Source: Candidatus Hermodarchaeota archaeon (lineage in GTDB: Archaea > Asgardarchaeota > Thorarchaeia > Thorarchaeales > Thorarchaeaceae). Taken from it: a DNA stretch of 64,000 nt. Position 1 is the first letter of the stretch; the number at the start of each line of letters is the position of its first letter. Positions 6,173 through 56,041 of this stretch are shown one piece after another. The stretch is taken from assembly GCA_048885865.1 (NCBI GenBank), contig JBHLLF010000017.1, positions 314-64,313 on the forward strand, read 5' to 3'. Under the pieces are notes generated by a model that saw only the letters and a program-made list of their open reading frames with translations, was not told the DNA's origin and did not search any database. The translations under genes and the position numbers were made by a program.

Positions 6173-6176
6173 AGAC

Positions 6177-7004: not shown

Positions 7005-7081
7005 ATATGTTACTCCGACAGAGTTGCCTCGAAAAATCGAGCATTTCCTGAAAGGCGGACTATTCTCCTAGTGAGTTTATA

Positions 7082-9376: not shown

Positions 9377-9385
9377 ATTCTATAA

Positions 9386-9420
9386 AAGCCCTCGTCATGA
9401 GGGCTTCCTCTTCTTTTTTA
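9386..9420. terminator. Hairpin plus T-tract between convergent genes
   Basis: AAGCCCTC-gtcat-GAGGGCTT stem-loop at 9386-9406, then cctcttctttttta. Confidence 0.5.
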
Positions 9421-9436
9421 CACCTTTGAACTGCAG

Positions 9437-10801: not shown

Positions 10802-10864
10802 ACTAGTGTATCCTGTTCGATGGATTAATTACTTTAATAGACCTCTAAATGCTGAGTTGGTGGT

Positions 10865-11626: not shown

Positions 11627-12066
11627 GCTTGAGACGGATCCCCCTCTTCGCTGAGCAACTACCGACCAATGTCGGTAGAAATCTTAAGCCAAGCCAATTC
11701 CACCAAACTCTCATGACGCAAATCATTGCTCCATGTGGAATCGACTGTGTTGAGTGTGAGGCTTACAAAGCAACAAAAGCTGACGACTGGGAAGAACTTG
11801 CACGGATTGCAGAGTCTTGGTCTGAAGACGAAGACACAGCGTATGAACCAAAGGACATGCTCTGTGATGGCTGCTTTGGACCTCGTATCAATGGTTCCTG
11901 TGTAACCTGCGATGTTCGGAAATGCGCTCTTAATCAAGGATTTCATCTCTGCTCCAACTGTGAGGATTACACCTGCCCAACTCTCGAGAAGCTATGGAAG
12001 AGCTTCTCGAGTCATGATATTGATGACTTGAAGGAGCGTCTCTTGATGGCCAAGTTTGCAATCTAG
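11623..12066 (+). CDS. DUF3795-type cysteine-rich metal-binding protein
   Basis: Motifs CGIDCVECEAY, CDGC and CVTCDVRKCALNQGFHLCSNCEDYTCP match the DUF3795 pattern. ATG at 11623 overlaps the upstream stop (ATGA). An internal ATG at 11713 sits immediately before the first Cys motif and may be the true start. Confidence 0.7.
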   Translation: MSLRRIPLFAEQLPTNVGRNLKPSQFHQTLMTQIIAPCGIDCVECEAYKATKADDWEELARIAESWSEDEDTAYEPKDMLCDGCFGPRINGSCVTCDVRKCALNQGFHLCSNCEDYTCPTLEKLWKSFSSHDIDDLKERLLMAKFAI

Positions 12067-18849: not shown

Positions 18850-21654
18850 ATGGCCGACCTAACGCTACTGACTTTAGTTTTCGAGTTTATGTCTCCTCTT
18901 GTTGTGACTGTTGTCTATTTGATTCTCTTCAATAAGAGGCGGAGCAAGTTTATCGAAGCGTTCATCGGGCTCATGTACGCCCTGACTATTACATTCAATA
19001 TCTTCTACATCTGGTTCATTCCAGCAACGAATCCTCCAACATTTACTGAGATTGGCGGAACTGGTCTGATGTGGGCATTCTTTCTTGACCTAGTATTCCA
19101 GTTCGTGTACACTCTGCAGCAATATCTGATCTGGGTAATGGTTGCTTTCTTTGCTGTGCTTTTCGGGATGGTAGTTCTTGCTCTGAAACTGACATTGCAG
19201 GATCCATTGAAAATGAGATTCAGCAACCTCATTCGAAGAATAGTTGGCAGTGAGCCTGAGACCGACGGATACACAGGTCTTAGAGACCGATTAAACCATA
19301 TCACATTCGAAGGCGTCGAGCCTCAGCCCCTTGATCCTGAAGTTTTAGGAAGAGCATGGCGTGAAGCTTGGAAAGACTATCTCATCATTGGACTTGCTAC
19401 ACTCCTACCCTCCATCGGAGCTTATGTAGGAGATGTTGTGTCATATACGGCATTCATCAACACTGGCAACCCTGCGTATCTCATCAATCCCTACATTACA
19501 GGTGTATTCATCTTCCTAACTTGGATCTACAGATTTGGATACCCCGCGTCAAACAGGATTGCAAAGGGAGCAGGTATGTATCTAGGCGAGAGGGACCTTG
19601 GACAAGAGATGATGCGAGGTGTTCTGGGATGGTTCTTCAGACTGAACATTCTACTTTCCATATTCCTCATAGCAACTAGCGTCTTCAACGCGTTCAATGC
19701 CCCGTTACTAATTGGAAGTGGACCTGGGCAGCTCAATCTGAGTCAGGCCGTCATAACTGATTCAGTCATCCGATACTTCCGAGATGGATTGATCTATGCA
19801 TTGCCTCCTATTCTGATAGCTATCATCATTCTTCCACTCGTGGAAGACTTTGCCGTGGTGTTGTACAAGAAGGCATTCGAAAAGCTCGCTAGGAAAAAGG
19901 CAGATGCGGTTGATGACACTCCAAAGAGCAGAGCATCCAGCATAGGAAGCGGAATTGGCATAGGTACGCTAGTAACCGGCGCCTTCTTGGGAGGAGTAAT
20001 GGGCGCCACACTGCATTTCTCATTCAATAATCCCTTGAATCCTGGTCAATTTAGATTCATACCAGGTCAAGTCGATACCTTTGTCGAAACCCTACTCATC
20101 GCTCCATTTACGAATGACCAGCTCATTCTCCCGGTATCATGGACTCTACTAATGCTAGCTATACCTTTTGCTGCCATGCTGTTGCTTGGTATTCTAGGAC
20201 ATATAGTTCGATCAAGAGCTATTGGCAGCACAGAGCTCTATGCATTTGTTGCTGGAGTCCTTGTTTCAGTCGCAACATATTTCCTGCTTCCCAATATGGA
20301 CTATCTGCTCAATGTTCTTCCCACACCTGCAGTGATTGATGGAGAGCTATTCTATAGACTTAGACCAATCATTGGTCCAACAACTGGAAATCTGCTATTC
20401 AGACTGGCTCTGCAGTATATTGTCAATCTACCAACCTATGTCTTCACTGCTCTATTCATCATGTACTACATGGAGTATCGTGAGAAATGGCGTGAACAGA
20501 CTGGAGAAGAATCAAAATCAATACTGAATCTGGAATCTCGAGATGTCTATCAATCTATTGGCATGTTTGTTGCGGGACTAGTCATAGCAATAGTCGCCGT
20601 ATTTGCGCTAGCAATGATGATTGACCCTGGTCTGCTCACCAATACATTAGTAGGCCTCTTTTCAGAAATAGGTGATCCAAATGGACTCGAAGGAGTATTG
20701 GCATGGATTGCTGAAGTGGACTATCACACTCCGTTCATTATTATCGCTGAGCACAACATAATTCGTACTCTGATTATGCTTGTATTTGGGCCCATGTTCT
20801 GGGCAGCAGTACTGTGGTTGGTTGGTGTCAAGAAGACAGCAGAGGAATCGAGCGTAGCAAGGATTGGGCTTGCGGTGACTGTAGTGGGTGTCGTTGCGAC
20901 ATTCCTATGGACCTACTTCGATATGACGAGAGGTGTATTCACGCCAGCACCTACATTGAATTGGATGATTCCTCTACATATTCAGGATCCATGGAGCCTA
21001 GCCGCTCAGATGGGTCTCCGTGCCATTCTCGTTTTTGGAGCTCTAGCTCTGGTCTACGCAATTATCATTGGAGCTCGAGTAAGTGGCGGCAAAGGTGCTG
21101 GTGCATGGTGGTTCCCTCTGTTCCTGTCCATCTTCGCATTGGAGTACTTCATATATGATGACCAATTCACCCTAATTGCTGTAATAGTAATACCGATGTT
21201 TCTGGCGATTCTGTATAAGGGAGCATATATGGGTCGTGAAGAAGTTCGGCGTGAAGATATACTGCTGACCTATATCAAGTTCAGCTTCATGTCAATCGCC
21301 ATTGCAGAGGTCTTGTCTACAGCTCTAATTATTGGAGGCATTAGCATTATCGATATGACCTTCACAGGATCTGCGCTGCCATTCCTCTCTAGTATAATAC
21401 CACACGCCGTGATCGAGATACCTACATTTCTGATTGCCGCGGCAATTTCGCTCAGGATAGCAAAGAACCTCTCTCCCAGCGTGGAACAAGAGAACTGGGA
21501 AGAGCTTCCCACCAAGACCAGGGCGCTATTGACTGACGAGAGGACTTGGAGGATATACCTGCTAATCGTATTCTTCCTTTTGGTTTCTGCGCTCATTGAG
21601 GCGTTTGTCACTCCACTAATTGTGGAATGGGTCCTAACTTTCGTCATGGCCTAG
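18850..21654 (+). CDS. Large polytopic membrane protein (about 20 TM) with SpoIIM/DUF95-like C-terminal module
   Basis: 934-aa ORF that is almost entirely hydrophobic helices. The C-terminal motif IIPHAVIEIPTFLIAAAISLRIAK resembles the conserved H-x-x-x-E-[IL]-P helix of the stage II sporulation protein M family. Confidence 0.8.
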   Translation: MADLTLLTLVFEFMSPLVVTVVYLILFNKRRSKFIEAFIGLMYALTITFNIFYIWFIPATNPPTFTEIGGTGLMWAFFLDLVFQFVYTLQQYLIWVMVAFFAVLFGMVVLALKLTLQDPLKMRFSNLIRRIVGSEPETDGYTGLRDRLNHITFEGVEPQPLDPEVLGRAWREAWKDYLIIGLATLLPSIGAYVGDVVSYTAFINTGNPAYLINPYITGVFIFLTWIYRFGYPASNRIAKGAGMYLGERDLGQEMMRGVLGWFFRLNILLSIFLIATSVFNAFNAPLLIGSGPGQLNLSQAVITDSVIRYFRDGLIYALPPILIAIIILPLVEDFAVVLYKKAFEKLARKKADAVDDTPKSRASSIGSGIGIGTLVTGAFLGGVMGATLHFSFNNPLNPGQFRFIPGQVDTFVETLLIAPFTNDQLILPVSWTLLMLAIPFAAMLLLGILGHIVRSRAIGSTELYAFVAGVLVSVATYFLLPNMDYLLNVLPTPAVIDGELFYRLRPIIGPTTGNLLFRLALQYIVNLPTYVFTALFIMYYMEYREKWREQTGEESKSILNLESRDVYQSIGMFVAGLVIAIVAVFALAMMIDPGLLTNTLVGLFSEIGDPNGLEGVLAWIAEVDYHTPFIIIAEHNIIRTLIMLVFGPMFWAAVLWLVGVKKTAEESSVARIGLAVTVVGVVATFLWTYFDMTRGVFTPAPTLNWMIPLHIQDPWSLAAQMGLRAILVFGALALVYAIIIGARVSGGKGAGAWWFPLFLSIFALEYFIYDDQFTLIAVIVIPMFLAILYKGAYMGREEVRREDILLTYIKFSFMSIAIAEVLSTALIIGGISIIDMTFTGSALPFLSSIIPHAVIEIPTFLIAAAISLRIAKNLSPSVEQENWEELPTKTRALLTDERTWRIYLLIVFFLLVSALIEAFVTPLIVEWVLTFVMA

Positions 21655-21671
21655 TGACATTTAGCTTGATG

Positions 21672-21711
21672 GCCTGCCTCTGGCAGGCTCTCTCCACTTT
21701 TTTCGATTTTT
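21672..21711 (+). terminator. Hairpin plus T-tract after the 934-aa gene
   Basis: GCCTGCC-tct-GGCAGGC stem-loop at 21672-21688, then tctctccacttttttcgattttt. Confidence 0.45.
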
Positions 21712-21926
21712 GGAATCTTCTATTCGTTCCTAACCAAAAGTTCACCCAACGTAGTCTTATATTTCTTGGATTCTGCTTGAACTTCATATGCGCCGCTGCT
21801 CTGGAGAGCCTCATCCTTTGACGTCAGACGTTGCGGAGCGTCTGAGCCGACATTGAGCAGAGAATTCAGACATATCTGCATGCCCTGGATTTCTTGGTGC
21901 AATAAACGCACAGCTGTGATGAAATC

Positions 21927-24900
21927 ATGATTAAACCGAGCAGTAAGATGATAACACTGTTCGCCCTTGCCCTTTTCACATTATCTCTTATGACAGCCCC
22001 AGCATCAGTGCCACCCTCTTCGGCACCAGAGAATTGGGTAGTCAATACGCAGACTCCTTTGAGGTCTGGAGTCCTTTCTGATTACCCCGACAACTATACT
22101 CGAGTGGAATGGGATCAGGGTACATGGAATGAACAGTGGGTTGATTCATGGAACCAAAGTCATTATCAGTTTGGTCCAACGGTCACATATCAAACTCGAA
22201 ATGCCACGAATAGCGCTCTTATCAGATGGAACGAAACAATTGACCTGGATGGTTGGGTCAATCTTATTATGAAAGTCCCGAAGACGGCCCTTTCCTATGA
22301 GATTCCTTTTGCAGTGCTCTTCCAGGCATCATACTACAATATGTCAGAGCTTGGCCCTGAGGGAAGAATGACTGAAGCAGGTTCTACTCCTATCACCGCT
22401 ATGGGCATGTATTTCGTGAATGAGTCTAGATGGGATTTCTATTCTTCAATGAATATGACTTTTCCAGAAGAGCCTCCATCTGACCTACCTGCAGGAACAA
22501 CGATAGAAGACGTTTTTGGGCCGCCAATAGATCCATTCATGGAGCTCGATGTAGCTGGCTGCTCAGCAGCGGCTGGAGTCGATTATTACTGGGCGACTTT
22601 CAAATTTAGGTTCAATCAATCTGCTCAGACAGGATTCTATCATATTATGGCCATGGCTATGGATTCAAGTCTTCAACCGATTGCTCAAAGCATAACGGAC
22701 GAATTTGGCGGACGGATTTTTGGTGCAACCTTTGATGATCTGGTCCATCAGGCTGTAGGAGGCTATTACTCTTGGAGTAGATTGGGCGACGATGGTAATA
22801 TACTGCTATCTGCTACAAGAGGAGAAGACTTCAATCAGACGGCAACCATCACGAATGGTACACTGCTAGCCAACGTGACATTCTATATTGACGTGCCTAG
22901 TCAAGTACTAACCACACAGTGGGTCTATGGTCCTTATACTGAAGTTCAGCAATCGACTGGAGGTTGGGAGTACGATACAATAAGTGAGACCTACATATGG
23001 AACGCCACAGTTCCAGTTACTCGAACGCTGCACTTTGATGGACTTCATCCGGAAACCTACTATACGGGTATCGACCTATCAATTGAGTATCAATTTTGGG
23101 ACGGATTTCAGTTCCATAATGACTGGGCATGGCCCAGACAAGCGGTTACATACCATTTCCATAATGACTCCTTTACAGTCAATCTGGCCTATGATTTCCG
23201 TACTTACGAATACATGGATGATCCGAAAGGTGGCTATTGGTATGAAACTTGGAGGACTCAGTACCTCCCATGGCCTGGCGCTGATGTACCTCTGACCTAC
23301 ATTTTGAATGCAAGCACTAGTGGTCACTCTTTGGCTGGCCAGAGGCATGTTGTCAACTTTAGAGGTCATATCAGTGAAGATGTACTACCTACAGGTGGAG
23401 AATTCGGCATGGGGCCTCTTCATATTAGGGATAGAGTAACCAACTTCGAAGGCAGGGATCTTGCGCAAGCAGCAGATCTCCCAATATCTTCTGAGGAAGA
23501 GAAGGCGGCATCTGAGATGCTACGCCAGCTTGGTGTTGAGTCTCCTACTGCAGTTGTGCGTCTAGTCCAGAAGGGACAGCCCTATCATCCAAGCTGGATG
23601 TTCCAGAGCGATGTGGGTGAAACTTTCACCGTACAGTCCCTCCTTCAAGGTGGTGCGGAGCTTGCAGCAGACATCGATGGTGTCGGATTGTTCTTACGTG
23701 CTTGGGATGAGAAATGGGGCTGGGACATGGGGGAGGACTGGCAACAGCATTCAGAGATTGAAGTGCAAATCCGAATAGATGACACCGGCGTTGTTGATGT
23801 GAAGGTCTTCAACTACACACGTAGGACATCTTGGGGTACGGGTCTACATTATGAATGGATGTACGTAGAGGTGATTCCAGGTGTTTGGGAATGGCGAGAA
23901 GTCGAGATTATAGGTGATTATTGGCAGGAATTGATTTGGGATCACAAGCTTGGTGATTGGACTAACGAGTGGTTCCCATTCCATGATAGTCGGTCAATCA
24001 TGAGTGTAGACTATTTCGATGTTGGTAATCTGACATATGGCCTAGTCGGAAATGATCTGCGAATAGTCTTCGATGTCACACCTAGGTCTGGGATACCTGG
24101 CCTTGAATGGAATTGGGACTTCTTCTATGGCAATCTGACTTGGGTTACAGACTACGAATCAGGAGAAGACTTCCATCTTGTAACAGGTTGGATTGAGGAT
24201 ACTGTCTATTCATACAAGAATGGAACAGACACGCTCCATCTATCAACTCCATATCACGATGTAGTCTTCAGGAATAATGTTACAGACGAACTCTACGTCC
24301 AAGAGAGCTTCCCCTTCATCGTCATTGATGGCACTGAGTATGAAGTGGAAAAGTACTATGTCGACACGGGCGGCGGCCTAGAAGAACGAGTCGTCTTTGA
24401 GAGATGGGACCACGAGGGTTGGGATGAAAACACTCAGTCCTACTCAGGCAATTGGAAACACTGGTATCAGTTAACAAACGGCACCGAAATTGATATCCAT
24501 CTCGGAACGAGTGCCATGATTTTCAACATCACCCTTGATGATGGAAGATGGTTCTTGGCTCCAGAAGACTTTCCACGTTACAATCCTTTCCTCAATGAAG
24601 AGTTCTTCATAATGCTAAATGGAACTCAAATTGTCGTGAGGAATGAAACAGGCCAGATATACTTCTACACCCCTGCACCATTGAGTACCACTCCTGTGAA
24701 GTTTGATGACACCTATGTGATCTATGCCAACGGAAGGAAACCAGTTTACTTGGCTGTGGAGCCATTCTGGGAAGTAGATCATTATGTGCTATATCTGAAC
24801 TCAACCCATGAGCGATTAGATGTATGGTGGGATGACTTCATGGGCCGCTATTTCTACTGGAATACGACAGATTTCACCCAGTACTATTTCGATGGCATGC

Positions 24901-27900
24901 ACTGGTCTCGGGTGTTTGAGGGCAAGTGGATGGGTGAGGATTTCCTAATAGATGAACTGGGTTATGGAATCAGGTATAAAGCATTTACAGAATTACATGG
25001 CAATGTCTATCCTCTGCCAATGCCCGGAATGGATGTATGGGATATCTTTGATCTCAACTACATTACCCCCAAGAAACATTTCGTACACATCAATGGCGGT
25101 ACTTATGAGGCGTACCCCCTGCCGCAGGGCTATGATCCAGTTCTGTCCTATTGGTACAACCAATACCAGGCAGATGTTGAGGGAGTACTGTATAATCTCA
25201 CTGAGTACAGCTGGAATCCATTCACTCCATGGACGCCCATGTCTGAACTCGACAGACCGTTCACAGCAATCGCTAATGGTTCAATTGGTGTTCCCGAAAT
25301 CTTCCACAAAGATTGGACAGTAGCGCTGGGACACACGAATTCCGACACCAGACGGTTTACTGTTGACCAGTGGCTGGAACTCAAGTCTGGAAATTATCAA
25401 GATCCAATGTGGCCAGATAGGATTTTCTTTGATGATCTTGGATATCCCTATGTTGTGACCATGAATGATGAGATGATGAATTACACCCAACATGCTCGTG
25501 CATATTTCTTCAACATTACACTTCAAAATGGGACGAGCTTCCATAGCATTGATCCATGGTTCAATGTATACGAAACATGGAATGAAACATCTCAGTTTTG
25601 GGAAGTTCATTACTACTATTTCCTGGATCTGAATGGTAGTGAAATTCGGCTCTACGATTTACCCGAATTCAACTTCACTCAGGAGAACTCAACCATTGTT
25701 GATGATATTTACAACCCGACGTACTATTGGGTAGATGGACAACAGTACGAGATCTTCAGGGTGGAGTGGCAGCCATTCTTCACTCTAGATGCAGCTAATG
25801 GCACTTCGTGGGAAGTTGTGGACCTACAGAATGACTGGGAGCACAGATTCAATATTCCATCATTCAACTTCACATTGGATAGTGGTGTGACTTGGTATAA
25901 AGTGACAGGCAGTCGCGATATGATATACCAAGCATTTTGGACTCATGGTTGGTCTCAGAAGCTGGATTACAGGCCACTTCCAGTTACCATATTGCGCGAA
26001 CAATGGTCGATAGTCATTGGAACGCCACGCTATGGAATGTGGGATATAGATTCATGGACAGTTGATGAAACGACTGGGGCACTCGATCTTGACGGCAACC
26101 TTGATACGACCAACGACCAGTACTACGTAGGGAGCTCCTATCAGTCCTCACACAGCTACAATGTTACTCAAGAGTATCTTTGGGTCAACATAGTTTGGGA
26201 GCCGAATTCAACACTTTGGCAAGATGAATTCTATTTGAACTCGTACGCCGGAATGGTCACCACGAACTGGTCCTACACCTGGGCAGACAATTACTACTGG
26301 TATCATGCTGATACCGGCGACCAATTGACGAGTGTGGAGATGACAGAGATTCAGAATCAACTTCTCGATCCAATGGGTCACCCAGCCCCTGGATATTGGG
26401 GCATTAGCTGGATGGCGCAGAATTTCACGTCCGAATTGATGAAGGCACAAGCCCAGGCTGAGGGGTGGGAATGGTTTGACACTTCTCAGGAATGGTCATG
26501 GATTTGGTGGGAACTGCAAGAGGGCTACACTACTGATGTTAACAATGGAACTCACATAGTTCCAATGGATATCAGTCTCGCATACCAGTATGCTGGAATG
26601 ATGGCTTGGAATGATACCAGCAATGATTCATTCCTGGATATCAATGTGGCTAGTCTGGGCAGTGCAGAACTGACCCACTACTGGATGCCAGCAAGTGTAG
26701 ACTCTGTGACCTTCACCACACCAGGTGAAGCTTGGGGCAATACCAACTCCACTGACGTTGAGTATCGCCCAGTCAATGAAACAATCGATTTTGGAGTCGC
26801 ATTCTTCAATATCAGCGGAGAAGTATTCCCATTTGGTGATTGGTCCTACTGGGATTGGTACGATGGTCAATACTATGGTTCGGACTTTTCCTCATTTGAG
26901 GAACGACCATCTCTTGCTGAAGTAGACGAGTTCTCCATTGATGTACATTTCACTGGAAACGTGAATACTACAGGCGGTCCCAATTATGCAAGTGTCAAAT
27001 TTGACATGCTAATTGGCGACTGGTATCTTGATTCACCAGGAGGCCGTGAAAGCAACCTTGATGGGTACAGTCTTGCAGTTGCTTTCTATAGCGATTTGAC
27101 AATAGTGACTCCTGAAGGGACTGAGATTCCGCCTTGCTATACCAATGACCTGGGACAACCGCTTTTCAACAATCAGGCAAACGCATCAAGCAGCTATGGA
27201 ATGGGGACTACTCTTTCCAGAGTGGCTTTGATGAACATGGGCGGTTCAACCTATAGCTGGGCACGAAACGCTTCAATGGCTCCAACCGTTTCAGCGCAAA
27301 CAGTGCCATTGTCCACATTCAGCACAATGTATGTATCCGATGCTGGAGGGTCTGCTACGGCATTTGATGTCACCTCATCACAGTTCTACACTGTGATCAG
27401 TTTCAAGCACTGGGCTGGTTATCAAGTTGAGGTCGACCCGGTGTTTGTAAGCTATGTTTCGCGTGGTGCAGATGATGCAACGTCTCCTTCGATTGATTAC
27501 TGGAATGAAGCGTCGGTTGATGTGCTAGGGACAGAGAATCTACGATTGGAGATTCAGGCATCTGACGAAGGCGGTTCAGAAATTTCCAAGGTTGTTGTCA
27601 TGGACCTTGACAATGTCGTGAACTACACAGCAACTTGGGAGGAGCCTGCTGGAGCATATGTAGTTGAGGTGCCACGATCTCAAGATGGCAGATACAACTT
27701 CAATTACCGAATTGTGGTGGTGGATGGTGCTGGCAACCAAGTCACGATTGATGATACCTATATGTTCAGAGACAACATCGATCCTATCATCAATAGTGTG
27801 GATGCTGACAATTCCACTGATGTGTTTGGACTTGAGATTGCGGTTATATCAGCTGATGTTTCTGACCTTGGCGGGTCAAACATCGCGTCTGTGACACTGA

Positions 27901-28544
27901 CCTACTCCAACACATCGGGCAACTATGATGTTGCGATGGTCGATACAGGTTTGGTGTACGAGGGTACTATACCCAACCATGCACCAGGTACCTTTGTGGA
28001 CTACTGGGTAACAGTTGAAGACGGAGATGGGAACTCGGTTCTGAGTTCTACAGGCAATTTCCAGTTCGCTACTGGTGGTGGTCCTGACACACTTGGGCCA
28101 TCAATAACCTCGGTCAGCGAACCCCCGTCGTCTCCTACAACCTCGGATTCCGTCACAGTTACCGCAACTGTCCAGGATGCCTCAGGTGTCAATGCGGTTA
28201 CTCTCCAATACAAGATTGACGATGGCACTTGGAATAATGTGTCTATGAGCGCTATTGGAAATACCTACACTGGTGTAATACCTGCTCAGGCTGGAGGCAG
28301 CCTAGTCACTTACAGGATTGTCGCTACCGACACTGTCGGAAACGAAGCCATCTCAGTTGAGAGGAACTACACTGTTGCCAGTGACACTACTACTCCAACA
28401 ACAGAGCCTACCACTCCAACTGAACCCCCACCACCTCCGCCACCTCCGGGATTGGATGACACCATGGTCATGATGGTCATGGGCGGATTGTTTGGACTTG
28501 TATTCATCTTCATTGGTGTGAATGTGGTTCGTCGAAGAAGGTAA
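21927..28544 (+). CDS. Giant secreted, C-terminally anchored W/Y-rich glycoprotein candidate (2205 aa), family unknown
   Basis: Uninterrupted 6.6-kb ORF with signal peptide MITLFALALFTLSLMTAPASV. I count 14 N-x-S/T sequons in the first ~480 aa by eye, and Trp/Tyr content is very high. Conserved TGALDLDGNLDTTNDQYY Ca-loop-like block. The C-terminus has three Ig-like repeats, a Pro/Thr linker, then a TM helix plus RRRR. Confidence 0.9.
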   Translation: MIKPSSKMITLFALALFTLSLMTAPASVPPSSAPENWVVNTQTPLRSGVLSDYPDNYTRVEWDQGTWNEQWVDSWNQSHYQFGPTVTYQTRNATNSALIRWNETIDLDGWVNLIMKVPKTALSYEIPFAVLFQASYYNMSELGPEGRMTEAGSTPITAMGMYFVNESRWDFYSSMNMTFPEEPPSDLPAGTTIEDVFGPPIDPFMELDVAGCSAAAGVDYYWATFKFRFNQSAQTGFYHIMAMAMDSSLQPIAQSITDEFGGRIFGATFDDLVHQAVGGYYSWSRLGDDGNILLSATRGEDFNQTATITNGTLLANVTFYIDVPSQVLTTQWVYGPYTEVQQSTGGWEYDTISETYIWNATVPVTRTLHFDGLHPETYYTGIDLSIEYQFWDGFQFHNDWAWPRQAVTYHFHNDSFTVNLAYDFRTYEYMDDPKGGYWYETWRTQYLPWPGADVPLTYILNASTSGHSLAGQRHVVNFRGHISEDVLPTGGEFGMGPLHIRDRVTNFEGRDLAQAADLPISSEEEKAASEMLRQLGVESPTAVVRLVQKGQPYHPSWMFQSDVGETFTVQSLLQGGAELAADIDGVGLFLRAWDEKWGWDMGEDWQQHSEIEVQIRIDDTGVVDVKVFNYTRRTSWGTGLHYEWMYVEVIPGVWEWREVEIIGDYWQELIWDHKLGDWTNEWFPFHDSRSIMSVDYFDVGNLTYGLVGNDLRIVFDVTPRSGIPGLEWNWDFFYGNLTWVTDYESGEDFHLVTGWIEDTVYSYKNGTDTLHLSTPYHDVVFRNNVTDELYVQESFPFIVIDGTEYEVEKYYVDTGGGLEERVVFERWDHEGWDENTQSYSGNWKHWYQLTNGTEIDIHLGTSAMIFNITLDDGRWFLAPEDFPRYNPFLNEEFFIMLNGTQIVVRNETGQIYFYTPAPLSTTPVKFDDTYVIYANGRKPVYLAVEPFWEVDHYVLYLNSTHERLDVWWDDFMGRYFYWNTTDFTQYYFDGMHWSRVFEGKWMGEDFLIDELGYGIRYKAFTELHGNVYPLPMPGMDVWDIFDLNYITPKKHFVHINGGTYEAYPLPQGYDPVLSYWYNQYQADVEGVLYNLTEYSWNPFTPWTPMSELDRPFTAIANGSIGVPEIFHKDWTVALGHTNSDTRRFTVDQWLELKSGNYQDPMWPDRIFFDDLGYPYVVTMNDEMMNYTQHARAYFFNITLQNGTSFHSIDPWFNVYETWNETSQFWEVHYYYFLDLNGSEIRLYDLPEFNFTQENSTIVDDIYNPTYYWVDGQQYEIFRVEWQPFFTLDAANGTSWEVVDLQNDWEHRFNIPSFNFTLDSGVTWYKVTGSRDMIYQAFWTHGWSQKLDYRPLPVTILREQWSIVIGTPRYGMWDIDSWTVDETTGALDLDGNLDTTNDQYYVGSSYQSSHSYNVTQEYLWVNIVWEPNSTLWQDEFYLNSYAGMVTTNWSYTWADNYYWYHADTGDQLTSVEMTEIQNQLLDPMGHPAPGYWGISWMAQNFTSELMKAQAQAEGWEWFDTSQEWSWIWWELQEGYTTDVNNGTHIVPMDISLAYQYAGMMAWNDTSNDSFLDINVASLGSAELTHYWMPASVDSVTFTTPGEAWGNTNSTDVEYRPVNETIDFGVAFFNISGEVFPFGDWSYWDWYDGQYYGSDFSSFEERPSLAEVDEFSIDVHFTGNVNTTGGPNYASVKFDMLIGDWYLDSPGGRESNLDGYSLAVAFYSDLTIVTPEGTEIPPCYTNDLGQPLFNNQANASSSYGMGTTLSRVALMNMGGSTYSWARNASMAPTVSAQTVPLSTFSTMYVSDAGGSATAFDVTSSQFYTVISFKHWAGYQVEVDPVFVSYVSRGADDATSPSIDYWNEASVDVLGTENLRLEIQASDEGGSEISKVVVMDLDNVVNYTATWEEPAGAYVVEVPRSQDGRYNFNYRIVVVDGAGNQVTIDDTYMFRDNIDPIINSVDADNSTDVFGLEIAVISADVSDLGGSNIASVTLTYSNTSGNYDVAMVDTGLVYEGTIPNHAPGTFVDYWVTVEDGDGNSVLSSTGNFQFATGGGPDTLGPSITSVSEPPSSPTTSDSVTVTATVQDASGVNAVTLQYKIDDGTWNNVSMSAIGNTYTGVIPAQAGGSLVTYRIVATDTVGNEAISVERNYTVASDTTTPTTEPTTPTEPPPPPPPPGLDDTMVMMVMGGLFGLVFIFIGVNVVRRRR
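27470..28378 (+). repeat. Three tandem ~100-aa Ig-like domain repeats (protein level) inside giant protein 1
   Basis: The recurring pattern ...GGS.I..V.L.Y......Y.V.M......Y.G.IP....G..V.Y.V.V.D..GN... occurs three times: SEISKVVVMDL..., SNIASVTLTYS... and SGVNAVTLQYK.... It is followed by the TTTPTTEPTTPTEPPPPPPPPG linker. Confidence 0.6.
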
Positions 28545-28558
28545 TTTCAAACAGAGAC

Positions 28559-28598
28559 CTGAGGGTGTACCCCTCAGAGTTCTCTTCTCTTTTTCTTC
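28559..28598 (+). terminator. Hairpin plus T-tract after giant gene 1
   Basis: CTGAGGG-tgtac-CCCTCAG stem-loop at 28559-28577, then agttctcttctctttttcttc. Confidence 0.5.
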
Positions 28599-28704
28599 AT
28601 CCAGTCATCTAGGAGAGATTCCCACGTAAATATGCATGGCTAGACCTTTACAATTCATTCATTGTCTCCATAAAAACCATGCAACAATATCTTATATTCA
28701 ACAA

Positions 28705-28728
28705 TAATACTATAGATTATATATTGAT
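28705..28728 (+). promoter_or_regulatory. TATA-like element upstream of giant gene 2
   Basis: aataaTACTATAGATTATATATTGata lies about 80-95 nt upstream of ATG 28805, in an AT-rich spacer downstream of a terminator. Confidence 0.35.
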
Positions 28729-28804
28729 AGCGCGCCAAGCTCGCTTCTTCGTTGAGATTAAGGCTATCATGCATGTGGCCTGTGGTCTCGCCACCTATTG
28801 AGTC

Positions 28805-31800
28805 ATGGTGCGCAAGGAGTTAACGAATTTGCGACGACGAGAATCCAGACGTGCACTGTTTTCTCTAGTTGCTGTTATGCTATTTCTACTTTCAATGACA
28901 TATGCGGGAAGTACTGCAGCTGTTCCAGCCACCACGACAGCGGCTATTTCACCATTATATTATACACCATCCGCAATCACCAGCCAGGAGCCTGAGAATG
29001 GCACCTATGTCTGGTGGAATCAGGACAGTAACAGCACTAGTGACGAGTGGACGTGGAACAACAGGAATTGGCTGTTTGGTCCAAGGCCTTCATTTGAGAT
29101 ATTCCATGCAAATGGAAGCCTTCTGACCAAGGACAGCTATGCTGAGATAGGCGAAATCCTGAGGTTCGTGGTGACTGTGCCCAGAGGCGTCTTTACTCAA
29201 GATGCCGACATTGGGCGTGTCCAGTTCTACGGATGGTATATGACTCAAGATTACAACTACTCAGCAAACTTCGATTTCAGCTACGACAGCTGGAATATCG
29301 ACAATCATTGGTGGGCATATAGCAGTCAGTGGAACTACACTGAGGAGCCTAATCCGATTAATCCAATTGATCCCTACGAACCACCGCCACCAATGCCGAG
29401 CTTCATTGACATTTATCCGGGTCAATGTTCCATTACAAGTGATCCTGATGCATATTATCTGACTTTTGCTGTGAGCTTCATTGCAGAGGCTCCATTGGGT
29501 CTCTATGAGCTGAACATGAATGTAGAGGATGACCAATGGAACTGGATTGGTTCCTACAACTATGGTTCAGGCTGGGAGTTCACAGGAATAGCAGTAGGAA
29601 TGTATGCAGACATGGCCTGGGCCACATCCTATGGTGGATCTTACACCCTACAGAAGCTGGACATGTCCGGAGATGCACTCTACTCAGTAGCAAGGGGTAC
29701 AGACTTCATGATGAGGTTCAACATCTCGGGCGATATTGAGTATGCGATGCTTGGCTTTAGAATGCCTTCTGACATGTATGTCACTGTCAATGTTACAGGA
29801 TGGCATGATGAAATGGTCACAACTACAGGTGCTTGGGAATACGATGATTTTGTGCAGACATATATCTGGAATGCTTCCAAGCAGGTGACCTACATGCAAC
29901 ATGTCTTTGGCCCTTATGAGCAACGTCAATATACATCGCTTGGCATTTCTGAAGAAGTCAATGTGACTGTCATCCGTGAAGACTGGAACAATGTCACAAT
30001 GACCTATGACAAGTATTTGGCAAATGAAACCTATTGGGTCGAGCGCCAATTCTTCTACATCTATAATCAGACAACTTCTTCGTTCGAAAGCTACTACGGA
30101 TACACATACTATGGCTATCCCCACGACTACATAGTCAATGAATGGGACTGGAACGAGGAGATCATGATTGTAGAGCCAATCCCTGCAGATCTACCAGTAT
30201 TCTTCGAGCTTAACACGACAAGGAGCTCTGCTCAGCTGAAAAATAACGAGCTGGTAGTAGACTTTGTTGGTCACTTCACGGACAAGATGCCAAAGACAGG
30301 CGAAGGCATGTACTTCGAGTTCTTTGACAGAGTAGTTGGTCCTGACAACTGGTACTATGGCCCAGCCACTTGCGGAGAAAGACCTCGCCAGACAGAGAGC
30401 GAATATCAAATGGCTAGGCGAATCACCATTGAGACCCCTGTGACAATTGCTAGACTTCTGAGGCCCGATGGTTCTGAGCCATCTGGATGGATGTTCCAGG
30501 CGGACAAGGGTGCGCCTTTCAAAGTCCGTGGAAGGCTTCAAGGCGGCAGTGACATCGCTGATGATATCGATGCAGCCAGTCTTATGCTAAGGGCCTATGA
30601 TGGCTACTGGACAGAGGAAGAATATGGTTGGTCAGAACTGACATATGAGATCGAGGTGGGCGTTGATGGAACTCCCAGATTGCGTGCGTTCAACTTCACC
30701 GAGAAGCACAACTATACTTGGGGTATGTACATGGACTATGTCTACTCTAACGTCACTGGTTGGCATGACGCATACAATGAGGAAACCAATGCTTGGGAGT
30801 GGACCTATGGTGAATACCAAGAATGGCTTTGGACCGAGGTTGAAGGTTGGCATTGGCAATGGTGGTACTTTAACCAGCTAACTGGCAAATGGCAGACCGA
30901 TTACATCCCTTACCAGAGCGCAGAGACCGAGGTTGTTGCAGACTTCTGCACAACATCTGGATTCTCTAGCTGGTCCGAGGGCGGCGACTTCTTCTTGGAG
31001 TTCGATGTTGTCATGGCTCCTCACGTACCTGACACAAACTACTGGTGGGAGTTCGCCTTCATGAACAACACTTGGTTTGAGGACTACTCAAGCAATTATG
31101 GTGAGCATGAAGTCCTGAGCTGGGACCGTGAGTGGATATACAGCTTTGACTACCTCGGTGAGAAGGTTTACATGGATCCTGTAGCGGAGAACCAGCTTGC
31201 CTTTTTCAATGGAACTCTGAGTTCAGACTTCATGATTGGCAAGGAAAGCCCATACATTGTTATCAACGACGAGAAGCTACCAGTCAAGGTTCGAGAGAAC
31301 TTCGACCCCGGCTGTGGGACCACTTGGACTGAGATGTTCTTCTATAGTCACATGGACCCAGCAACTGGCAAAGATGTCTACTTCTATGAGCTAATGAATG
31401 GTACAAAGATCTATGTCAGCTACACAGACGTAGTTTACATCTTCAATGTCACATCTCTTTTCGGAGACTCATTCCTCACAGCAATGAGTTACGATTGGGG
31501 TTGGTTTGATGGCACTAATTCCTACAATTATTGGATCGATATCTATGGTGGAATACACCAAGGTGGTTTGGAATACTATTGGGGTAATAGCGTTATTGAG
31601 CTATATGACAGGGTCGAGGTAGATTTCAACAATATAGGCTATTTCATGAGATACGGTACCGATAAGATGCTGAACGTTTCGAATTGGTACTGGAGCAGCA
31701 GAGATGGGATGTACTTTGTTGAAGGTACTGACCACAATCTCTACGAGATGGTCTATAACGAGACAGACTACTACTATCATATCTTCATTGAAGGCAAGTG

Positions 31801-34681
31801 GCAACTCTGTAGCTGGCCCGAGCGGTACTACATAGCTGATTTCGAGGGATCTGAAGCAATGCTGTTTACATACGACCAGCATCGGTTCTGGTTCCACGAG
31901 TCTGAAGGCGTTAAACATGAAATGCCATATCCTGGCGCGAACGCTCCTTGGCACTATGAGATGAGTCACACAATCTCTGAGGGCGGCTTTGTGCCAACTA
32001 CCAAGTCACTGCTGTACAATGACAGGGCCTATCCAGTATACAACATCTCGATGGACTACTTTGTAGACATTGCAGGTGCAACATACTCTCTGGACATGAC
32101 CTATGTTCCCCACTCTGTTGCTAATGGGACAGACATCTGGGCTCCACTTAGAGTAGGAGTCGAGGGTGTCGTTGGTGACTTCGATAACGATCTGCTCTTC
32201 TCTGAAGTTGAGACGATCCAATACTACACTCCTGACATGATGGGTCAGCCCCGTTGGGACTCAATGCATGGCTATTATGTCATCGACCTCTTCAATGGGA
32301 CGAAGTGGATTGCCAACTACTCTTATGCGATGCTCCTGAATGAATTTGATTACTCTGGAGTGACATTCTATTCTGCTCAGGACTATCCATACTACTACGA
32401 AGATGGCAACTCGTCCTGGTACGAGTACTGTCTTATCAATGGCACATATCTTGAGGTTCCTGACTTTGATAGTGCCACACGAGTTGGCAGACATTTGGTA
32501 TATACCTATGAAAGCCCAATGAATGGCACCGTCTTTGACTTCATGTCAGAAACCTATCTCATCTATTACTGGGGCATGAATGTTTGGGGATACACAGTCC
32601 ACAATGCCACATATTCAGGAACGCTATTCTTGAATATGCAGATGGGCGGCCATGATGTCCTCCAGTTTGACTATCTTGGAACTCCTGTCACTGCTACTGC
32701 AGCCTTTGAGAGCATCGAACGGATGCGTCAGAGATGGGGCTATGCTCTAGTATATGGTCCATCTCCGATTCAGAGTGATGTCTACAAGAACTTCTACGAC
32801 CTCATTATTGGTGTTCCCGAATGGGGCATGTGGGGCTTGAAGAACTGGGATATCAATCCTGATAACGGCGCGCTTGACCTTGACGGAGACCTTGAAACAG
32901 TGGATGATCAGTACTTCGTACAGGAGCAGTACACTTCAACTGATAGCTGGACCCATACTTGGGACCGAATGGATGTCCACATAACTTGGGATCCGAACGG
33001 CACGATCTGGGGTGATGAGATGAATGTCAATTCCTGGCTAGGTTTAGACATCTTCTCATGGACCTATGAATGGTCACAGACTTTCTATTGGTACACGACC
33101 GATATGGTTCAACTTGATGCTTTACAAATGCAGAGCGTCAAGGACACTCTGTTGACTGCTGAAGGCGATGCCCGCCCAGGATACTGGGACATATCTTGGA
33201 TGGCTAAGAATGTGACATGGGCTGATCTGGTGGCTGAAGCAGAGGCCAACGGTTGGGACTGGATCACATCGAATGAACAGACCTGGACTTGGATGAGCTT
33301 CGGCGTGGGTCAAGATTACGGCACAAGTTACGATGACTTCGGTACAGAGCACTGGGCTCGTATCGGAATGCACTATGAGTATAGCGGTCTAATGATCTGG
33401 GAAGACCTGAACGACAACGGTCAGATGGATGTCGACTTATTCGACCCCGGCAGTGGTGAACTCAGTCATTATCTGATTCCTGATTCTGTCGGCAGCGTTG
33501 GATTTGTCACTCCAGGCCAGGCTTATGGCAATCCCGACTCCCAGGGCTACATGCATCTAGACCTCTTGGATGAGGTCACTTGGGGCGTGAACTTCTATGA
33601 GATTAATGGGACATCGTTCCCATTCACTCTGGATGGCTATTGGGGTTGGTACGATGGTTTCATGACTGGTTCTGACCTTAGAGGCTTCGATCAGCGACCC
33701 ACTGAGGTGGTTATCGATGAGATCTCGTTCTTAGTGCACTTCCAGGGATACATTGACGCAGAGTCACTGAACAACTACGCTGACATCAAAGTCGACAACT
33801 ATGTTGGCAACTGGGATGTCGACATGATTGGTGGTCGCGACAACTTGAAGAACCGCTCTCTGGCTCTCAATTACTTCGCAGACGTGAATATGCACGACTT
33901 CGCCTTCAAGGCAGAAGGGTCCGTCGCGGACAATGAGATGACCGTTAGCGCAGATGTCTTCGAGTTTGAGACTGCAACAGCACAGTTTGCGAAGATGATC
34001 ATGGGCGGTGTCACCTACGACTGGGGCAAGAACACTTCTGCCTCCTATGATGTCGTTAGCTACACCACACCTGTTGGTACATTCCGAACGGCGTTCGAGT
34101 CAGATAACGGCAAGTCGGCGACTTCCTGGTCATTTGGCTCTAACATGTTCTACGTGACTATTGGCTTCCCGCAATGGGATGGCTACAGTGTCTACCAAGA
34201 CCCAGTGTTTGTGAGCTACGTATCAAGGGCTGGTGCACCAGACCTGCCTGAGGGCATGTACATCGGTCCATTGACCCTTGATATAGCCACACCTACTGCG
34301 ACCGACACCGTTACAGTGAGAGTAGATGTCTATTCTGAAACTGAACCAATCTATGGGGTTGACCTCATGTACGGCACAGACGGCGAGAATTGGTGGTCTG
34401 ATCCGATGTCGAAGGAAGGAGAATACACCTATGTTGGTATAATTCCACCTTTCGAAGACCAGACAGAGGTCTTCTACATGGTTATGGTCCACACACAGGG
34501 TGGCGACTATCAATCTCAGGTCAGTAGCTACATTGTCGGTGGCAGACAGACAACATATCCTGGAGGATTTGATCTTGACATGGACATGCTGATGCTTCTT
34601 GGAGGCGGAGGATTTGTCCTTGCCATGATCGGCGGTCTTGTCCGTAGGCGACGCCGAGGTCGTACATCTTACGAATGGTAA
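28805..34681 (+). CDS. Giant secreted, C-terminally anchored W/Y-rich glycoprotein candidate (1958 aa), collinear paralog of 21927-28544
   Basis: Signal/anchor ALFSLVAVMLFLLSMTYAGSTAA. Shared blocks with giant 1: GVPEWGMWGLKNWDINPDNGALDLDGDLETVDDQYFV; ARPGYWDISWMAKNVTWADLVAEAEANGWDW; QDPVFVSYVSRAG. It has one C-terminal Ig-like domain. Tail is YPGGFDLDMDMLMLLGGGGFVLAMIGGLVRRRRRG. Confidence 0.9.
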   Translation: MVRKELTNLRRRESRRALFSLVAVMLFLLSMTYAGSTAAVPATTTAAISPLYYTPSAITSQEPENGTYVWWNQDSNSTSDEWTWNNRNWLFGPRPSFEIFHANGSLLTKDSYAEIGEILRFVVTVPRGVFTQDADIGRVQFYGWYMTQDYNYSANFDFSYDSWNIDNHWWAYSSQWNYTEEPNPINPIDPYEPPPPMPSFIDIYPGQCSITSDPDAYYLTFAVSFIAEAPLGLYELNMNVEDDQWNWIGSYNYGSGWEFTGIAVGMYADMAWATSYGGSYTLQKLDMSGDALYSVARGTDFMMRFNISGDIEYAMLGFRMPSDMYVTVNVTGWHDEMVTTTGAWEYDDFVQTYIWNASKQVTYMQHVFGPYEQRQYTSLGISEEVNVTVIREDWNNVTMTYDKYLANETYWVERQFFYIYNQTTSSFESYYGYTYYGYPHDYIVNEWDWNEEIMIVEPIPADLPVFFELNTTRSSAQLKNNELVVDFVGHFTDKMPKTGEGMYFEFFDRVVGPDNWYYGPATCGERPRQTESEYQMARRITIETPVTIARLLRPDGSEPSGWMFQADKGAPFKVRGRLQGGSDIADDIDAASLMLRAYDGYWTEEEYGWSELTYEIEVGVDGTPRLRAFNFTEKHNYTWGMYMDYVYSNVTGWHDAYNEETNAWEWTYGEYQEWLWTEVEGWHWQWWYFNQLTGKWQTDYIPYQSAETEVVADFCTTSGFSSWSEGGDFFLEFDVVMAPHVPDTNYWWEFAFMNNTWFEDYSSNYGEHEVLSWDREWIYSFDYLGEKVYMDPVAENQLAFFNGTLSSDFMIGKESPYIVINDEKLPVKVRENFDPGCGTTWTEMFFYSHMDPATGKDVYFYELMNGTKIYVSYTDVVYIFNVTSLFGDSFLTAMSYDWGWFDGTNSYNYWIDIYGGIHQGGLEYYWGNSVIELYDRVEVDFNNIGYFMRYGTDKMLNVSNWYWSSRDGMYFVEGTDHNLYEMVYNETDYYYHIFIEGKWQLCSWPERYYIADFEGSEAMLFTYDQHRFWFHESEGVKHEMPYPGANAPWHYEMSHTISEGGFVPTTKSLLYNDRAYPVYNISMDYFVDIAGATYSLDMTYVPHSVANGTDIWAPLRVGVEGVVGDFDNDLLFSEVETIQYYTPDMMGQPRWDSMHGYYVIDLFNGTKWIANYSYAMLLNEFDYSGVTFYSAQDYPYYYEDGNSSWYEYCLINGTYLEVPDFDSATRVGRHLVYTYESPMNGTVFDFMSETYLIYYWGMNVWGYTVHNATYSGTLFLNMQMGGHDVLQFDYLGTPVTATAAFESIERMRQRWGYALVYGPSPIQSDVYKNFYDLIIGVPEWGMWGLKNWDINPDNGALDLDGDLETVDDQYFVQEQYTSTDSWTHTWDRMDVHITWDPNGTIWGDEMNVNSWLGLDIFSWTYEWSQTFYWYTTDMVQLDALQMQSVKDTLLTAEGDARPGYWDISWMAKNVTWADLVAEAEANGWDWITSNEQTWTWMSFGVGQDYGTSYDDFGTEHWARIGMHYEYSGLMIWEDLNDNGQMDVDLFDPGSGELSHYLIPDSVGSVGFVTPGQAYGNPDSQGYMHLDLLDEVTWGVNFYEINGTSFPFTLDGYWGWYDGFMTGSDLRGFDQRPTEVVIDEISFLVHFQGYIDAESLNNYADIKVDNYVGNWDVDMIGGRDNLKNRSLALNYFADVNMHDFAFKAEGSVADNEMTVSADVFEFETATAQFAKMIMGGVTYDWGKNTSASYDVVSYTTPVGTFRTAFESDNGKSATSWSFGSNMFYVTIGFPQWDGYSVYQDPVFVSYVSRAGAPDLPEGMYIGPLTLDIATPTATDTVTVRVDVYSETEPIYGVDLMYGTDGENWWSDPMSKEGEYTYVGIIPPFEDQTEVFYMVMVHTQGGDYQSQVSSYIVGGRQTTYPGGFDLDMDMLMLLGGGGFVLAMIGGLVRRRRRGRTSYEW

Positions 34682-34686
34682 GACGG

Positions 34687-34720
34687 AGGGGGGAAACCCC
34701 CTCTACCCTTTCTTTTTCTC
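34687..34720. terminator. Hairpin plus T-tract at the junction of the two convergent giant-protein operons
   Basis: GAGGGGG-aaa-CCCCCTC stem-loop at 34687-34703, then taccctttctttttctc. Confidence 0.5.
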
Positions 34721-34750: not shown

Positions 34751-35197
34751 CTACGAAATGAGAGTCGGCTTTAGCTTGTTATGGAAGAACCTGATTCCTG
34801 CAAGATGTGCTTCGTATGTTGTGTTGAAGATATCATATGAGATACCAGTGACTGGCATCGCATTTCTGATTATTAGATAGTTCTTCTTGTCTATGCCAAA
34901 GGTCATCTCTGCTAGCCTTGCATTTGATTTCAGAAGAGCCTCATACAGCTTGGTCCTTTTTGAAACGGAGCTTAAGTCCATGAGTCTTGTTGTTAGGGTG
35001 ATCCAATGCTTGCCCGGAAATACTTCGATCTCCTTGGTTTCAGTCGGTCCATATGGGTACAAACTGAAAGTCTTTCTTCCATGTTCCTCGAAATTGACCT
35101 CCAGTCTCTTAAGATACTCTTTTGCAATGAACCACGTAGTGCTCATATTTATCGACTCGTCTCGGGCAGAGCTGTGCATGGGATTCTGTCTCAGCAT
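34751..35197 (-). CDS. Small soluble protein, possible YbjN / type-III-secretion-chaperone-like fold
   Basis: 148-aa ORF with ATG start, no TM helix and no signal peptide. The pattern FIAKEYLKRLEVNFEE...ITLTTRLMDL...LYEALLKSNARLAEMTFGIDKKNYLIIRNAMPVTGISYDIF resembles YbjN-family proteins. This is memory-based and weak. Confidence 0.55.
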   Translation of the reverse strand: MLRQNPMHSSARDESINMSTTWFIAKEYLKRLEVNFEEHGRKTFSLYPYGPTETKEIEVFPGKHWITLTTRLMDLSSVSKRTKLYEALLKSNARLAEMTFGIDKKNYLIIRNAMPVTGISYDIFNTTYEAHLAGIRFFHNKLKPTLIS

Positions 35198-56038: not shown

Positions 56039-56041
56039 CAG

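Follow-up and report, generated by a model that had tools for sequence, protein, structure and literature searches.

What kind of protein is encoded by the two giant genes that stand in tandem in the 64,000-nucleotide stretch of contig JBHLLF010000017.1 analyzed here (the window, from Candidatus Hermodarchaeota archaeon assembly GCA_048885865.1)? We call the two genes, and likewise their products, A and B. Judged by sequence, they are true collinear paralogs, and it is well supported that both are acidic, all-beta proteins of the cell surface that are exported, anchored at the C-terminus, and furnished with conserved N-x-S/T glycosylation motifs (sequons). That they are, in addition, paralogs within an Asgard-centered family of giant type-I cell-coat glycoproteins, B-like members being the core component and A an optional partner, is a proposal to which we give about an even chance. 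The role in a coat, the abundance, the oligomerization, and the actual glycosylation of A and B are what we infer beyond the supported features. The two open reading frames (ORFs) are as follows.

21927..28544, plus strand: giant A, ORF of 2205 amino acids (aa), A-clade type-I membrane protein
28805..34681, plus strand: giant B, ORF of 1958 aa, B-clade type-I membrane protein

In the stored gene call (P0001), A is 2198 aa long and begins seven codons downstream at Met8 (21948), which is the probable true start. One collinear BLASTP alignment joins A and B (505 identities over 1937 columns, or 26%; 44% positives; E 8e-155), in agreement with the original prediction, made from the DNA letters and their translations, that the two align block by block over their full length. 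The same prediction had allowed that similarity might prove to be confined to the C-terminal anchor; when A and B are compared in bins of 100 residues within a family alignment of 61 sequences, their identity ranges from 11 to 39% over the entire body that they share, with a peak of 31-39% at A 1400-1800, and the similarity is therefore not anchor limited. The peptide blocks quoted in its support can all be located (A 539, 1486, and 1836; B 544, 1456, 1798, and 682), save that one letter was misread: the string given as 'WEWMYVEV...' should be 'YEWMYVEV...', and EWMYVEVIPGVWEWREVE stands at A 643.

The composition of the two proteins is as unusual as had been claimed. Against a background of the 30 other ORFs of the window, Trp is about threefold enriched (4.3% in A and 4.6% in B versus 1.39%) and Tyr about twofold (6.2% and 8.4% versus 3.46%). 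Lys plus Arg amount to 4.4% in A and 4.9% in B, compared with 10.7% in the background, while Asp plus Glu reach 13.5% and 14.4%, and both proteins are almost free of Cys. The aromatic bias is a property of the whole family, with Trp at 3.5-5.9% and Tyr at 5.2-9.9% across the 61 homologs. Archaeal surface glycoproteins are likewise acidic, poor in Lys and Arg, and almost Cys-free.

The layout of both chains is that of an anchored ectodomain, with the following parts.

21927..22004, plus strand: signal peptide of A, with a hydrophobic stretch at aa 6-24 by hydropathy
25944..27476, plus strand: Trp-rich core module of A, aa 1340-1850, the region of top conservation in the 61-sequence alignment
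27489..28373, plus strand: three tandem immunoglobulin (Ig)/FN3-like domains of A, aa 1855-2149, from the AlphaFold2 strand pattern, Foldseek, and hhalign
28374..28541, plus strand: C-terminal end of A, consisting of a Thr/Pro-rich stalk, a transmembrane helix (aa 2180-2198, 28464-28520), and an RRRR tail
32735..34240, plus strand: core module of B, aa 1311-1812, placed by the alignment register and sharing 37% identity with that of A
34574..34630, plus strand: C-terminal transmembrane helix of B, aa 1924-1942 by hydropathy, with RRRRRGR after it

Hydropathy gives each protein an N-terminal hydrophobic signal segment and exactly one further transmembrane helix, at the extreme C-terminus, which bears out the earlier assignment of the bulk of each chain to an ectodomain. 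The AlphaFold2 model of A likewise has a helix at 6-21, followed by a low-confidence segment. The C-terminal end is common to the family and consists of a Thr/Pro-rich run, the transmembrane helix, and RRR(K/R) at the very end. The tripartite arrangement of a PGF-CTERM-type C-terminus (short motif, helix, basic cluster) is thus present, A ending in ...PPPPGLDDTMVMMVMGGLFGLVFIFIGVNVVRRRR and B in ...PGGFDLDMDMLMLLGGGGFVLAMIGGLVRRRRRGRTSYEW. What precedes the helix varies within the family (PG.., GPG.., acidic residues) and is not PGF, the PGF-CTERM model gives no NCBIfam match to A or B at E <= 0.1, and no archaeosortase is found in Pfam scans of 34, or most, of the larger ORFs of the window.

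The core module of about 500 aa is the most constrained part of the chain. Its invariant positions number in the dozens and are often Trp, and in A it holds most of the invariant Trp together with an acidic loop, GALDLDGxL..DDQ, that is invariant in the family as GALDLDG(N/D)L..T.DDQ. Neither the core nor the rest of the body could be assigned to a described family. Neither Pfam nor NCBIfam has a match to A or B within their first ~1800 aa, and Pfam gave none in the ~1800-aa body of any of 23 diverse family members; the core module has no Pfam family, and its short distant relatives are also without a Pfam match. Profiles of the whole length and of the core module, compared with PDB sequences, found nothing below E 0.038. 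The original statement that no known domain is recognizable in the N-terminal ~1800 aa therefore holds for all of these searches. Pfam matches in the family are restricted to the variable C-terminal domains, which belong to Ig-like families and which are replaced in one subfamily by TSP3 repeats; in A, hhalign detects the repeat among the Ig/FN3-like domains at 97.6%.

Structure prediction describes the architecture in outline. AlphaFold2 was applied to A 1-1200 and A 1006-2205, each with the 61-sequence alignment, and gave a mean predicted local distance difference test score (pLDDT) of 74.3 and 74.1 and a predicted template modeling score (pTM) of 0.50 and 0.44, so that confidence is reasonable for single segments but not for their overall arrangement. 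Nearly pure beta structure is predicted in both halves, with many very long strands of 20-28 residues, and three helices occur within the core module; A is predicted to be a chain of beta-sandwich-like domains. When the half models were compared with PDB structures by Foldseek, the Ig-like tail matched SiiE BIg and FN3 tandems (5e-11), and the N-terminal half weakly matched strings of beta-sandwich domains in PrgB (3.8e-7), SlaA (1.4e-4), antigen I/II, and complement MG domains; nothing else was matched. Neither a solenoid nor a propeller was matched, and a search of viral structures gave generic ConA-like, LamG (lectin-like), and Ig matches alone; as the queries were unsplit half-length multidomain models, this outcome is weak rather than negative for the body and the core. 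An assignment of body or core to a fold by Foldseek was dropped, since generic Ig/FN3 tandems dominate the matches and the template modeling scores (TM-scores) are too low.

If these are surface glycoproteins, their sequons should be more than a by-product of composition. A contains 54 and B 35, compared with 18.1 +/- 3.9 and 13.6 +/- 3.4 in composition-preserving shuffles (z = 9.1 and 6.4), an enrichment of 2.6-3x that confirms the frequency of such sites noted earlier, including the count by eye of 14 in the first ~480 aa of A (exactly 14 in A 1-480). The reversed motif [ST]-x-N is found just 20 times in A and 10 times in B and is not enriched. Across the 61 homologs, the mean is 47.8 sequons versus 18.3 expected, and 27 alignment columns carry a sequon in >=50% of the sequences. 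Several are close to universal, namely, those at A N629 (61 of 61), N851 and N1499 (60 each), N1291 (57), and N1781 (56). Thr is preferred over Ser at the +2 position by about 2.5 to 1. In the family alignment, the residue before the sequon Asn is aromatic in 30.5% of cases, against 16.7% in the background and 18.3% before non-sequon Asn, and aromatic residues are enriched at -3 to -5 as well, which ties together the two compositional oddities of these proteins. The sequences of A and B thus present what would be expected of archaeal N-glycoproteins, sequons beyond chance at conserved positions, and the two are probably heavily glycosylated. Asgard genomes are reported to encode homologs of AglB, the oligosaccharyltransferase (PMC11284389).

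The window itself belongs to a Thorarchaeota (Asgard) genome, and the distribution of the family is likewise centered on the Asgard archaea. For A, 24 full-length relatives were found (40-85% identity; nearly all labeled Thorarchaeota, one Odinarchaeota), and for B about 35 (40-89% identity), nearly all of 1926-1982 aa, a near-constant length for B-type proteins that are 40-59% identical. Where a lineage is stated for homologs of A and B, it is nearly always Thorarchaeota, with single Odin- and Loki-labeled exceptions, and every homolog is named 'hypothetical protein' at its source. An exhaustive comparison of the core-module profile with 1.84 billion cluster representatives returned 164 clusters, 91 of them at E <= 1e-30, with named matches labeled Thor-, Hod-, or 'Promethearchaeota'. 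The relatives fall into three size classes (giants of 1900-2500 aa, proteins of ~1100-1240 aa, and proteins of 500-750 aa), and in the smallest the match is limited to the distal two-thirds of the module. Among species-representative genomes, 76 loci were found, mostly from Thorarchaeota and otherwise Hermod-, Baldr-, or Njord-labeled. About nine loci from metagenome-assembled genomes bear the label Bathyarchaeota, which is unconfirmed, and form a subfamily of ~2300-aa proteins that includes P0026-28. Apart from these and two odd bins, all lineage-stating sources are Asgard, and no relative was found in the viral contigs scanned. By its sequence distribution, then, the family is rare and Asgard centered. 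No description of it was found in the published literature that we searched. The family and its ~500-aa core domain are new, the domain having no Pfam or PDB relative; the archaeal membrane-anchored surface glycoprotein is, as a kind of protein, already known.

Some of these labels call for care. Those of several loci (L062/L064, L069, and L083) look inconsistent, and single matches come from bins labeled Micrarchaeota and Aenigmatarchaeota. In the core tree, a Baldrarchaeota-labeled sequence has a Bathyarchaeia-labeled one as its close sister, so that misbinning or lateral transfer is possible. In one Hermodarchaeota metagenome-assembled genome (L084), two members of ~1230 aa lie in tandem at 4047-7763 and 7991-11677, from which it follows that tandem duplication of the family recurs outside Thorarchaeota; next to them, at 2189-3850 on the minus strand, is a Sec23/Sec24-like gene with trunk, beta-sandwich, and zinc-finger domains.

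Why the two genes stand side by side can be approached through the core-module tree. In a neighbor-joining tree, the A clade is separate from the B clade, to which a further clade of copies at other loci is related. As eight divergent Thorarchaeota genomes contribute adjacent members to both clades, the duplication predates the sampled Thorarchaeota radiation. In a proxy tree based on the neighboring M28 peptidase, loci with both genes are scattered among deep branches, and one large clade has either A or nothing in the slot, in some cases along with a B-like copy at a distance of 15-20 kb. The pattern is consistent with an ancestral AB pair from which genes were lost repeatedly.

The variation can be seen directly in a slot that has a fixed order in Thorarchaeota: M28 peptidase, ferritin, a ~930-aa SpoIIM-domain protein, the giants, and a ~148-aa protein on the opposite strand. 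Its contents vary from A alone or B alone, through A then B (here and in the complete genome CP070761.1), to A, B, and a second B (L008), or to none. In our window, A and its surrounding DNA behave as a unit.

21633..28681, plus strand: A cassette of 7.05 kb, comprising A and the DNA on either side of it, found in the window and in L006
28682..28804, plus strand: upstream region of B, with AT-rich TATA-like boxes, conserved with B-only relatives from 28682 on

The cassette is missing from the closest relatives: the blastn homology of L052, L060, and L073 resumes in all three at 28682, and that of L052 stops near 21632. L052 is the nearest relative, with a B that is 95% identical and flanks that are 93-97% identical; L006, which carries both A and B, is more distant. 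Direct repeats were sought in the regions upstream of A and of B, flanking the 7-kb segment, and none was found beyond a 9-bp chance match. The original description of the duplication as ancient and maintained is hence supported in its first part and, as worded, not in its second, A being absent from L052, L060, and L073 and both genes from seven empty slots. Where the genes are present, they are under strong purifying selection and can be taken to be functional, as the ratio of nonsynonymous to synonymous divergence (dN/dS) is 0.07 for B and 0.04 for A (against L006), comparable to that of the M28 peptidase in the same comparisons (0.11 and 0.03). The variation in copy number and the empty slots indicate that the locus, and A especially, is dispensable or exchangeable. 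The best reading of these sequence comparisons is that the B type would be the constrained core component and A the dispensable or exchangeable one.

When these results are placed into cellular context, a route from gene to coat can be proposed. Each giant would be exported through Sec by means of its N-terminal signal peptide and tethered to the cytoplasmic membrane by the single C-terminal helix with its Arg-rich cytoplasmic stop. The Thr/Pro-rich stalk and one to three Ig-like spacers would keep the ectodomain off the membrane, so as to display some 1800 aa of nonrepetitive, all-beta structure that carries N-glycans at dozens of sequons, many of which hold the same position throughout the family. 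The Trp-rich ~500-aa module beside the spacers, with its invariant acidic DxDxDG-like loop, would be the constrained part and might mediate folding or oligomer contacts, possibly in a Ca2+-dependent manner, while the less conserved N-terminal ~1300 aa would point outward. Jointly, the giants could account for a large part of the cell's protein coat, either as a true lattice or as a noncrystalline coat like that on cultured Asgard cells, with A as an optional second component that is gained and lost as a 7-kb cassette.

Known envelope proteins provide partial precedents. The surface layer (S-layer) glycoprotein of haloarchaea (csg of Haloferax volcanii and Halobacterium) also combines a signal peptide, an acidic beta-sandwich (Ig-like) ectodomain, and many N-glycosylation sites with a Thr-rich stretch before a single C-terminal anchor that has basic residues at its end. 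Its sequence has no detectable similarity to A and B, which exceed it in length about 2.5-fold and whose large non-Ig body and Trp-rich core are without counterpart in csg. A second precedent is SlaA of Sulfolobales, which has no membrane anchor of its own and depends on SlaB. SlaA (PDB 7ZCX) is likewise a very large, all-beta, multidomain, heavily N-glycosylated protein of the outer envelope and is the only S-layer protein among the structural matches to the N-terminal half of A; the match is weak (E 1.4e-4, probability 0.25, TM 0.08) and is not accompanied by sequence similarity. The parallel between A and B and the S-layer proteins, which as a class self-assemble at very high abundance into a two-dimensional lattice over the cell, is one of broad architecture, looser for SlaA than for csg, together with this weak structural match. 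Among Asgard archaea themselves, cultured cells of Lokiarchaeum ossiferum, Promethearchaeum, and Ca. Y. umbracryptum have a single membrane with numerous protruding surface proteins of unassigned identity and no ordered S-layer (PMC9834061; 10.1101/2025.11.06.686947). Those densities carry no gene assignment. In genomes with a lineage label, the loci of our family are Thor-, Hermod-, Baldr-, or Njord-labeled, with shorter Hod relatives; the sole Loki-labeled homolog is P0048, and the genome that holds its contig is labeled Promethearchaeota.

Several observations weigh against a glycoprotein coat built of these giants. The nearest relative, L052, lacks A entirely, and in seven species-level genomes (L091, L097, L108, L111, L115, L121, and L137) the slot is empty, the SpoIIM-like gene being followed directly by the 148-aa gene. 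The locus can therefore not count as a single-copy gene that is essential to the envelope, although some of the genomes with an empty slot have B-like copies elsewhere. The TM-scores of the Foldseek matches to the N-terminal half are all <0.4 and mostly <0.2, and the match to SlaA has a probability of just 0.25. Gly is the most frequent residue at +1 of the sequons, many conserved ones reading N-G-T, so that some may be kept as beta-turns and not as glycosylation sites. Lastly, the glycoproteome of Promethearchaeum syntrophicum did not reveal an S-layer-type glycoprotein (PMC11284389), and heavy glycosylation of the Asgard surface is accordingly not a given.

Of the other explanations, the one that fares best, unlikely as we consider it, is that the giants are adhesins or ligand-capturing receptors, in which the distal aromatic-rich ectodomain binds polysaccharide, detrital particles, or partner cells and A and B are cassette-swapped specificities. 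The very high Trp and Tyr content would suit such a role, as would the zero to three copies in a hot-spot slot, which is typical of accessory surface genes; the mixed labels (Asgard and 'Bathyarchaeota') of lineages that cohabit in sediments could hint at ecological sharing. A borderline match to the carbohydrate-binding module CBM_56 (PF22184), a family characterized by beta-1,3-glucan binding through conserved aromatic residues, is found at A 2071-2130 (28.8 bits, with the cutoff at 27; E 1.4e-6), and matches to this module occur in 6 of the 23 members scanned. In A, it coincides with the third of the three generic membrane-proximal Ig-like domains, where a spacer would be expected, and it is absent from B. 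The ~1800-aa body matches no lectin, carbohydrate-binding module, or enzyme family of Pfam in any of the 23. The original suggestion that A and B bind carbohydrate or surfaces is weak, the borderline CBM_56 match being the one signal related to carbohydrates. Many of the Trp are invariant throughout the family, for which packing in structural cores is at least as good an explanation as an evolving binding site.

It also counts for the adhesin that its namesakes among bacteria, SiiE, PrgB, and antigen I/II, provide the top structural matches and share with A and B a membrane-distal display through Ig-like domains. These giant Ig-repeat adhesins are arrays of near-identical repeats in variable number, whereas A and B are essentially nonrepetitive, of fixed length, and under strong purifying selection. 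Self-BLAST detects no internal repeat, and profile-profile comparison finds one pair of ~60-aa 'Y.L.NGT' hairpin units (A ~841-920 and ~1161-1240; 98%), with repetition otherwise confined to the Ig-like domains; most of the length of A and B thus does not consist of tandem homologous domains, as that of a giant repeat adhesin does. Given the fixed length, the scarcity of repetition, and the evolution of B at the slow pace of its housekeeping neighbors, a structurally constrained envelope component is favored over a modular adhesin.

The neighbors in the slot raise a further, improbable explanation, namely, that the giants are the extracellular arm of a membrane machine for transport, sensing, or envelope remodeling, built with the SpoIIM-domain protein and serviced by the small, cytosolic CesT-like protein. 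The features concerned are these.

18850..21654, plus strand: left flank, 934-aa polytopic SpoIIM-like protein with ~16 hydrophobic segments and a C-terminal SpoIIM domain (PF01944, 2.3e-14)
28553..28600, plus strand: terminator-like element after A, a GC-rich hairpin and T-rich run (RNAfold -17.6 kcal/mol)
34685..34720, plus strand: terminator-like element after B, a GC-rich hairpin and T-rich run (RNAfold -17.0 kcal/mol)
34751..35197, minus strand: right flank, 148-aa soluble protein, conserved in position in most Thorarchaeota loci

SpoIIM is the sole recognized domain of the 934-aa protein, which occurs at 65 genome loci, one per contig, in no genome labeled outside Thorarchaeota or Promethearchaeota (some have no lineage name). 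The order of SpoIIM-like gene, giant or giants, and small opposite-strand gene is kept in most Thorarchaeota loci, a giant following the SpoIIM-like gene directly in 36 of the 47 loci with room for one. Relative to L052, the SpoIIM-like gene has a synonymous divergence (dS) of 1.21, 3-4x the 0.28-0.48 of its neighbors, which points to a tract of recombination beside the A indel. The 148-aa protein resembles the CesT/Tir type III secretion chaperones (PF22550, E 0.0016), but at 18.9 bits the match is under the Pfam cutoff of 27. Members with Hermod, Baldr, Njord, and 'Bathy' labels, as well as the extra Thorarchaeota copies, have neither neighbor. The SpoIIM-like gene, like A and B, ends in a GC-rich hairpin and T-run of its own, so that the three are likely separate transcripts. 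Strict functional coupling to the SpoIIM-like neighbor was downgraded on account of the seven genomes in which the flanking genes adjoin without a giant.

It is very improbable that the core module is an unrecognized enzyme or a membrane-active (for example, fusogen-like) domain delivered on a giant scaffold, since the many invariant Asp, Glu, His, and Lys, the unusually long predicted beta-hairpins of 20-27 residues, and the 500-750 aa proteins of Hodarchaeales and other Asgard that consist of the distal two-thirds of the module are set against the lack of any PDB chain sequence match at E <0.038, of a Pfam family, and of a fusogen, toxin, or hydrolase among the Foldseek matches listed.

Other features of the window lie apart from the pair, among them a third giant that was considered as a paralog of A and B and rejected, having no BLAST similarity to either and different domains (TSP3 and NHL).

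36335..42580, minus strand: third giant ORF, 2081 aa, with matches to bacterial TSP3 repeats, NHL/beta-propeller, and FRG1-like domains

It has an N-terminal transmembrane segment, four clustered internal hydrophobic segments (aa 731-810), and a C-terminal transmembrane segment; it carries 33 sequons versus 17 expected and is 95% identical in L052. A 253-aa ORF at 10865-11626 (plus strand) has no Pfam match, a Trp content of 3.2%, and 6 sequons where 1.9 would be expected, and is possibly a further small glycoprotein of the surface. On the minus strand at 6177-7004, a 275-aa ORF matches the eukaryotic soluble NSF attachment protein (SNAP) family just over the cutoff (PF14938, E 2.1e-6) and could be a tetratricopeptide repeat protein of the eukaryotic-signature type. 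A pyruvate formate-lyase-like glycyl radical enzyme (831 aa) and, on the opposite strand, a radical-SAM/ferredoxin-type activase occupy 53543-56998; the same pair is found near the giants in L008.

Returning to the coat glycoproteins that we favor, a more far-reaching version can be put forward tentatively, and it is somewhat unlikely to be right: the family would be the main building block of the cell coat in Thorarchaeota and several other Asgard lineages and a new class of archaeal envelope protein, without sequence relationship to known S-layer proteins, in which the novel Trp-rich, Ca2+-binding module builds homo- and hetero-oligomers of A and B and the slot is a hot spot for swapping of the surface, for instance under pressure from viruses.

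For the make-up of the Asgard cell surface, the family constitutes a concrete set of candidates for the surface structures of Thorarchaeota, which are uncultured, and it supplies defined targets for metaproteomics, glycoproteomics, and labeling by antibodies or in cryo-electron tomography. The zero to three copies between fixed flanks offer a natural presence/absence series with which remodeling of an archaeal envelope can be followed. Models of eukaryogenesis rely on surface-mediated contacts between partner cells, and if these giants are indeed the main coat, they would provide the first gene-level handle on the Asgard surface behind such contacts.

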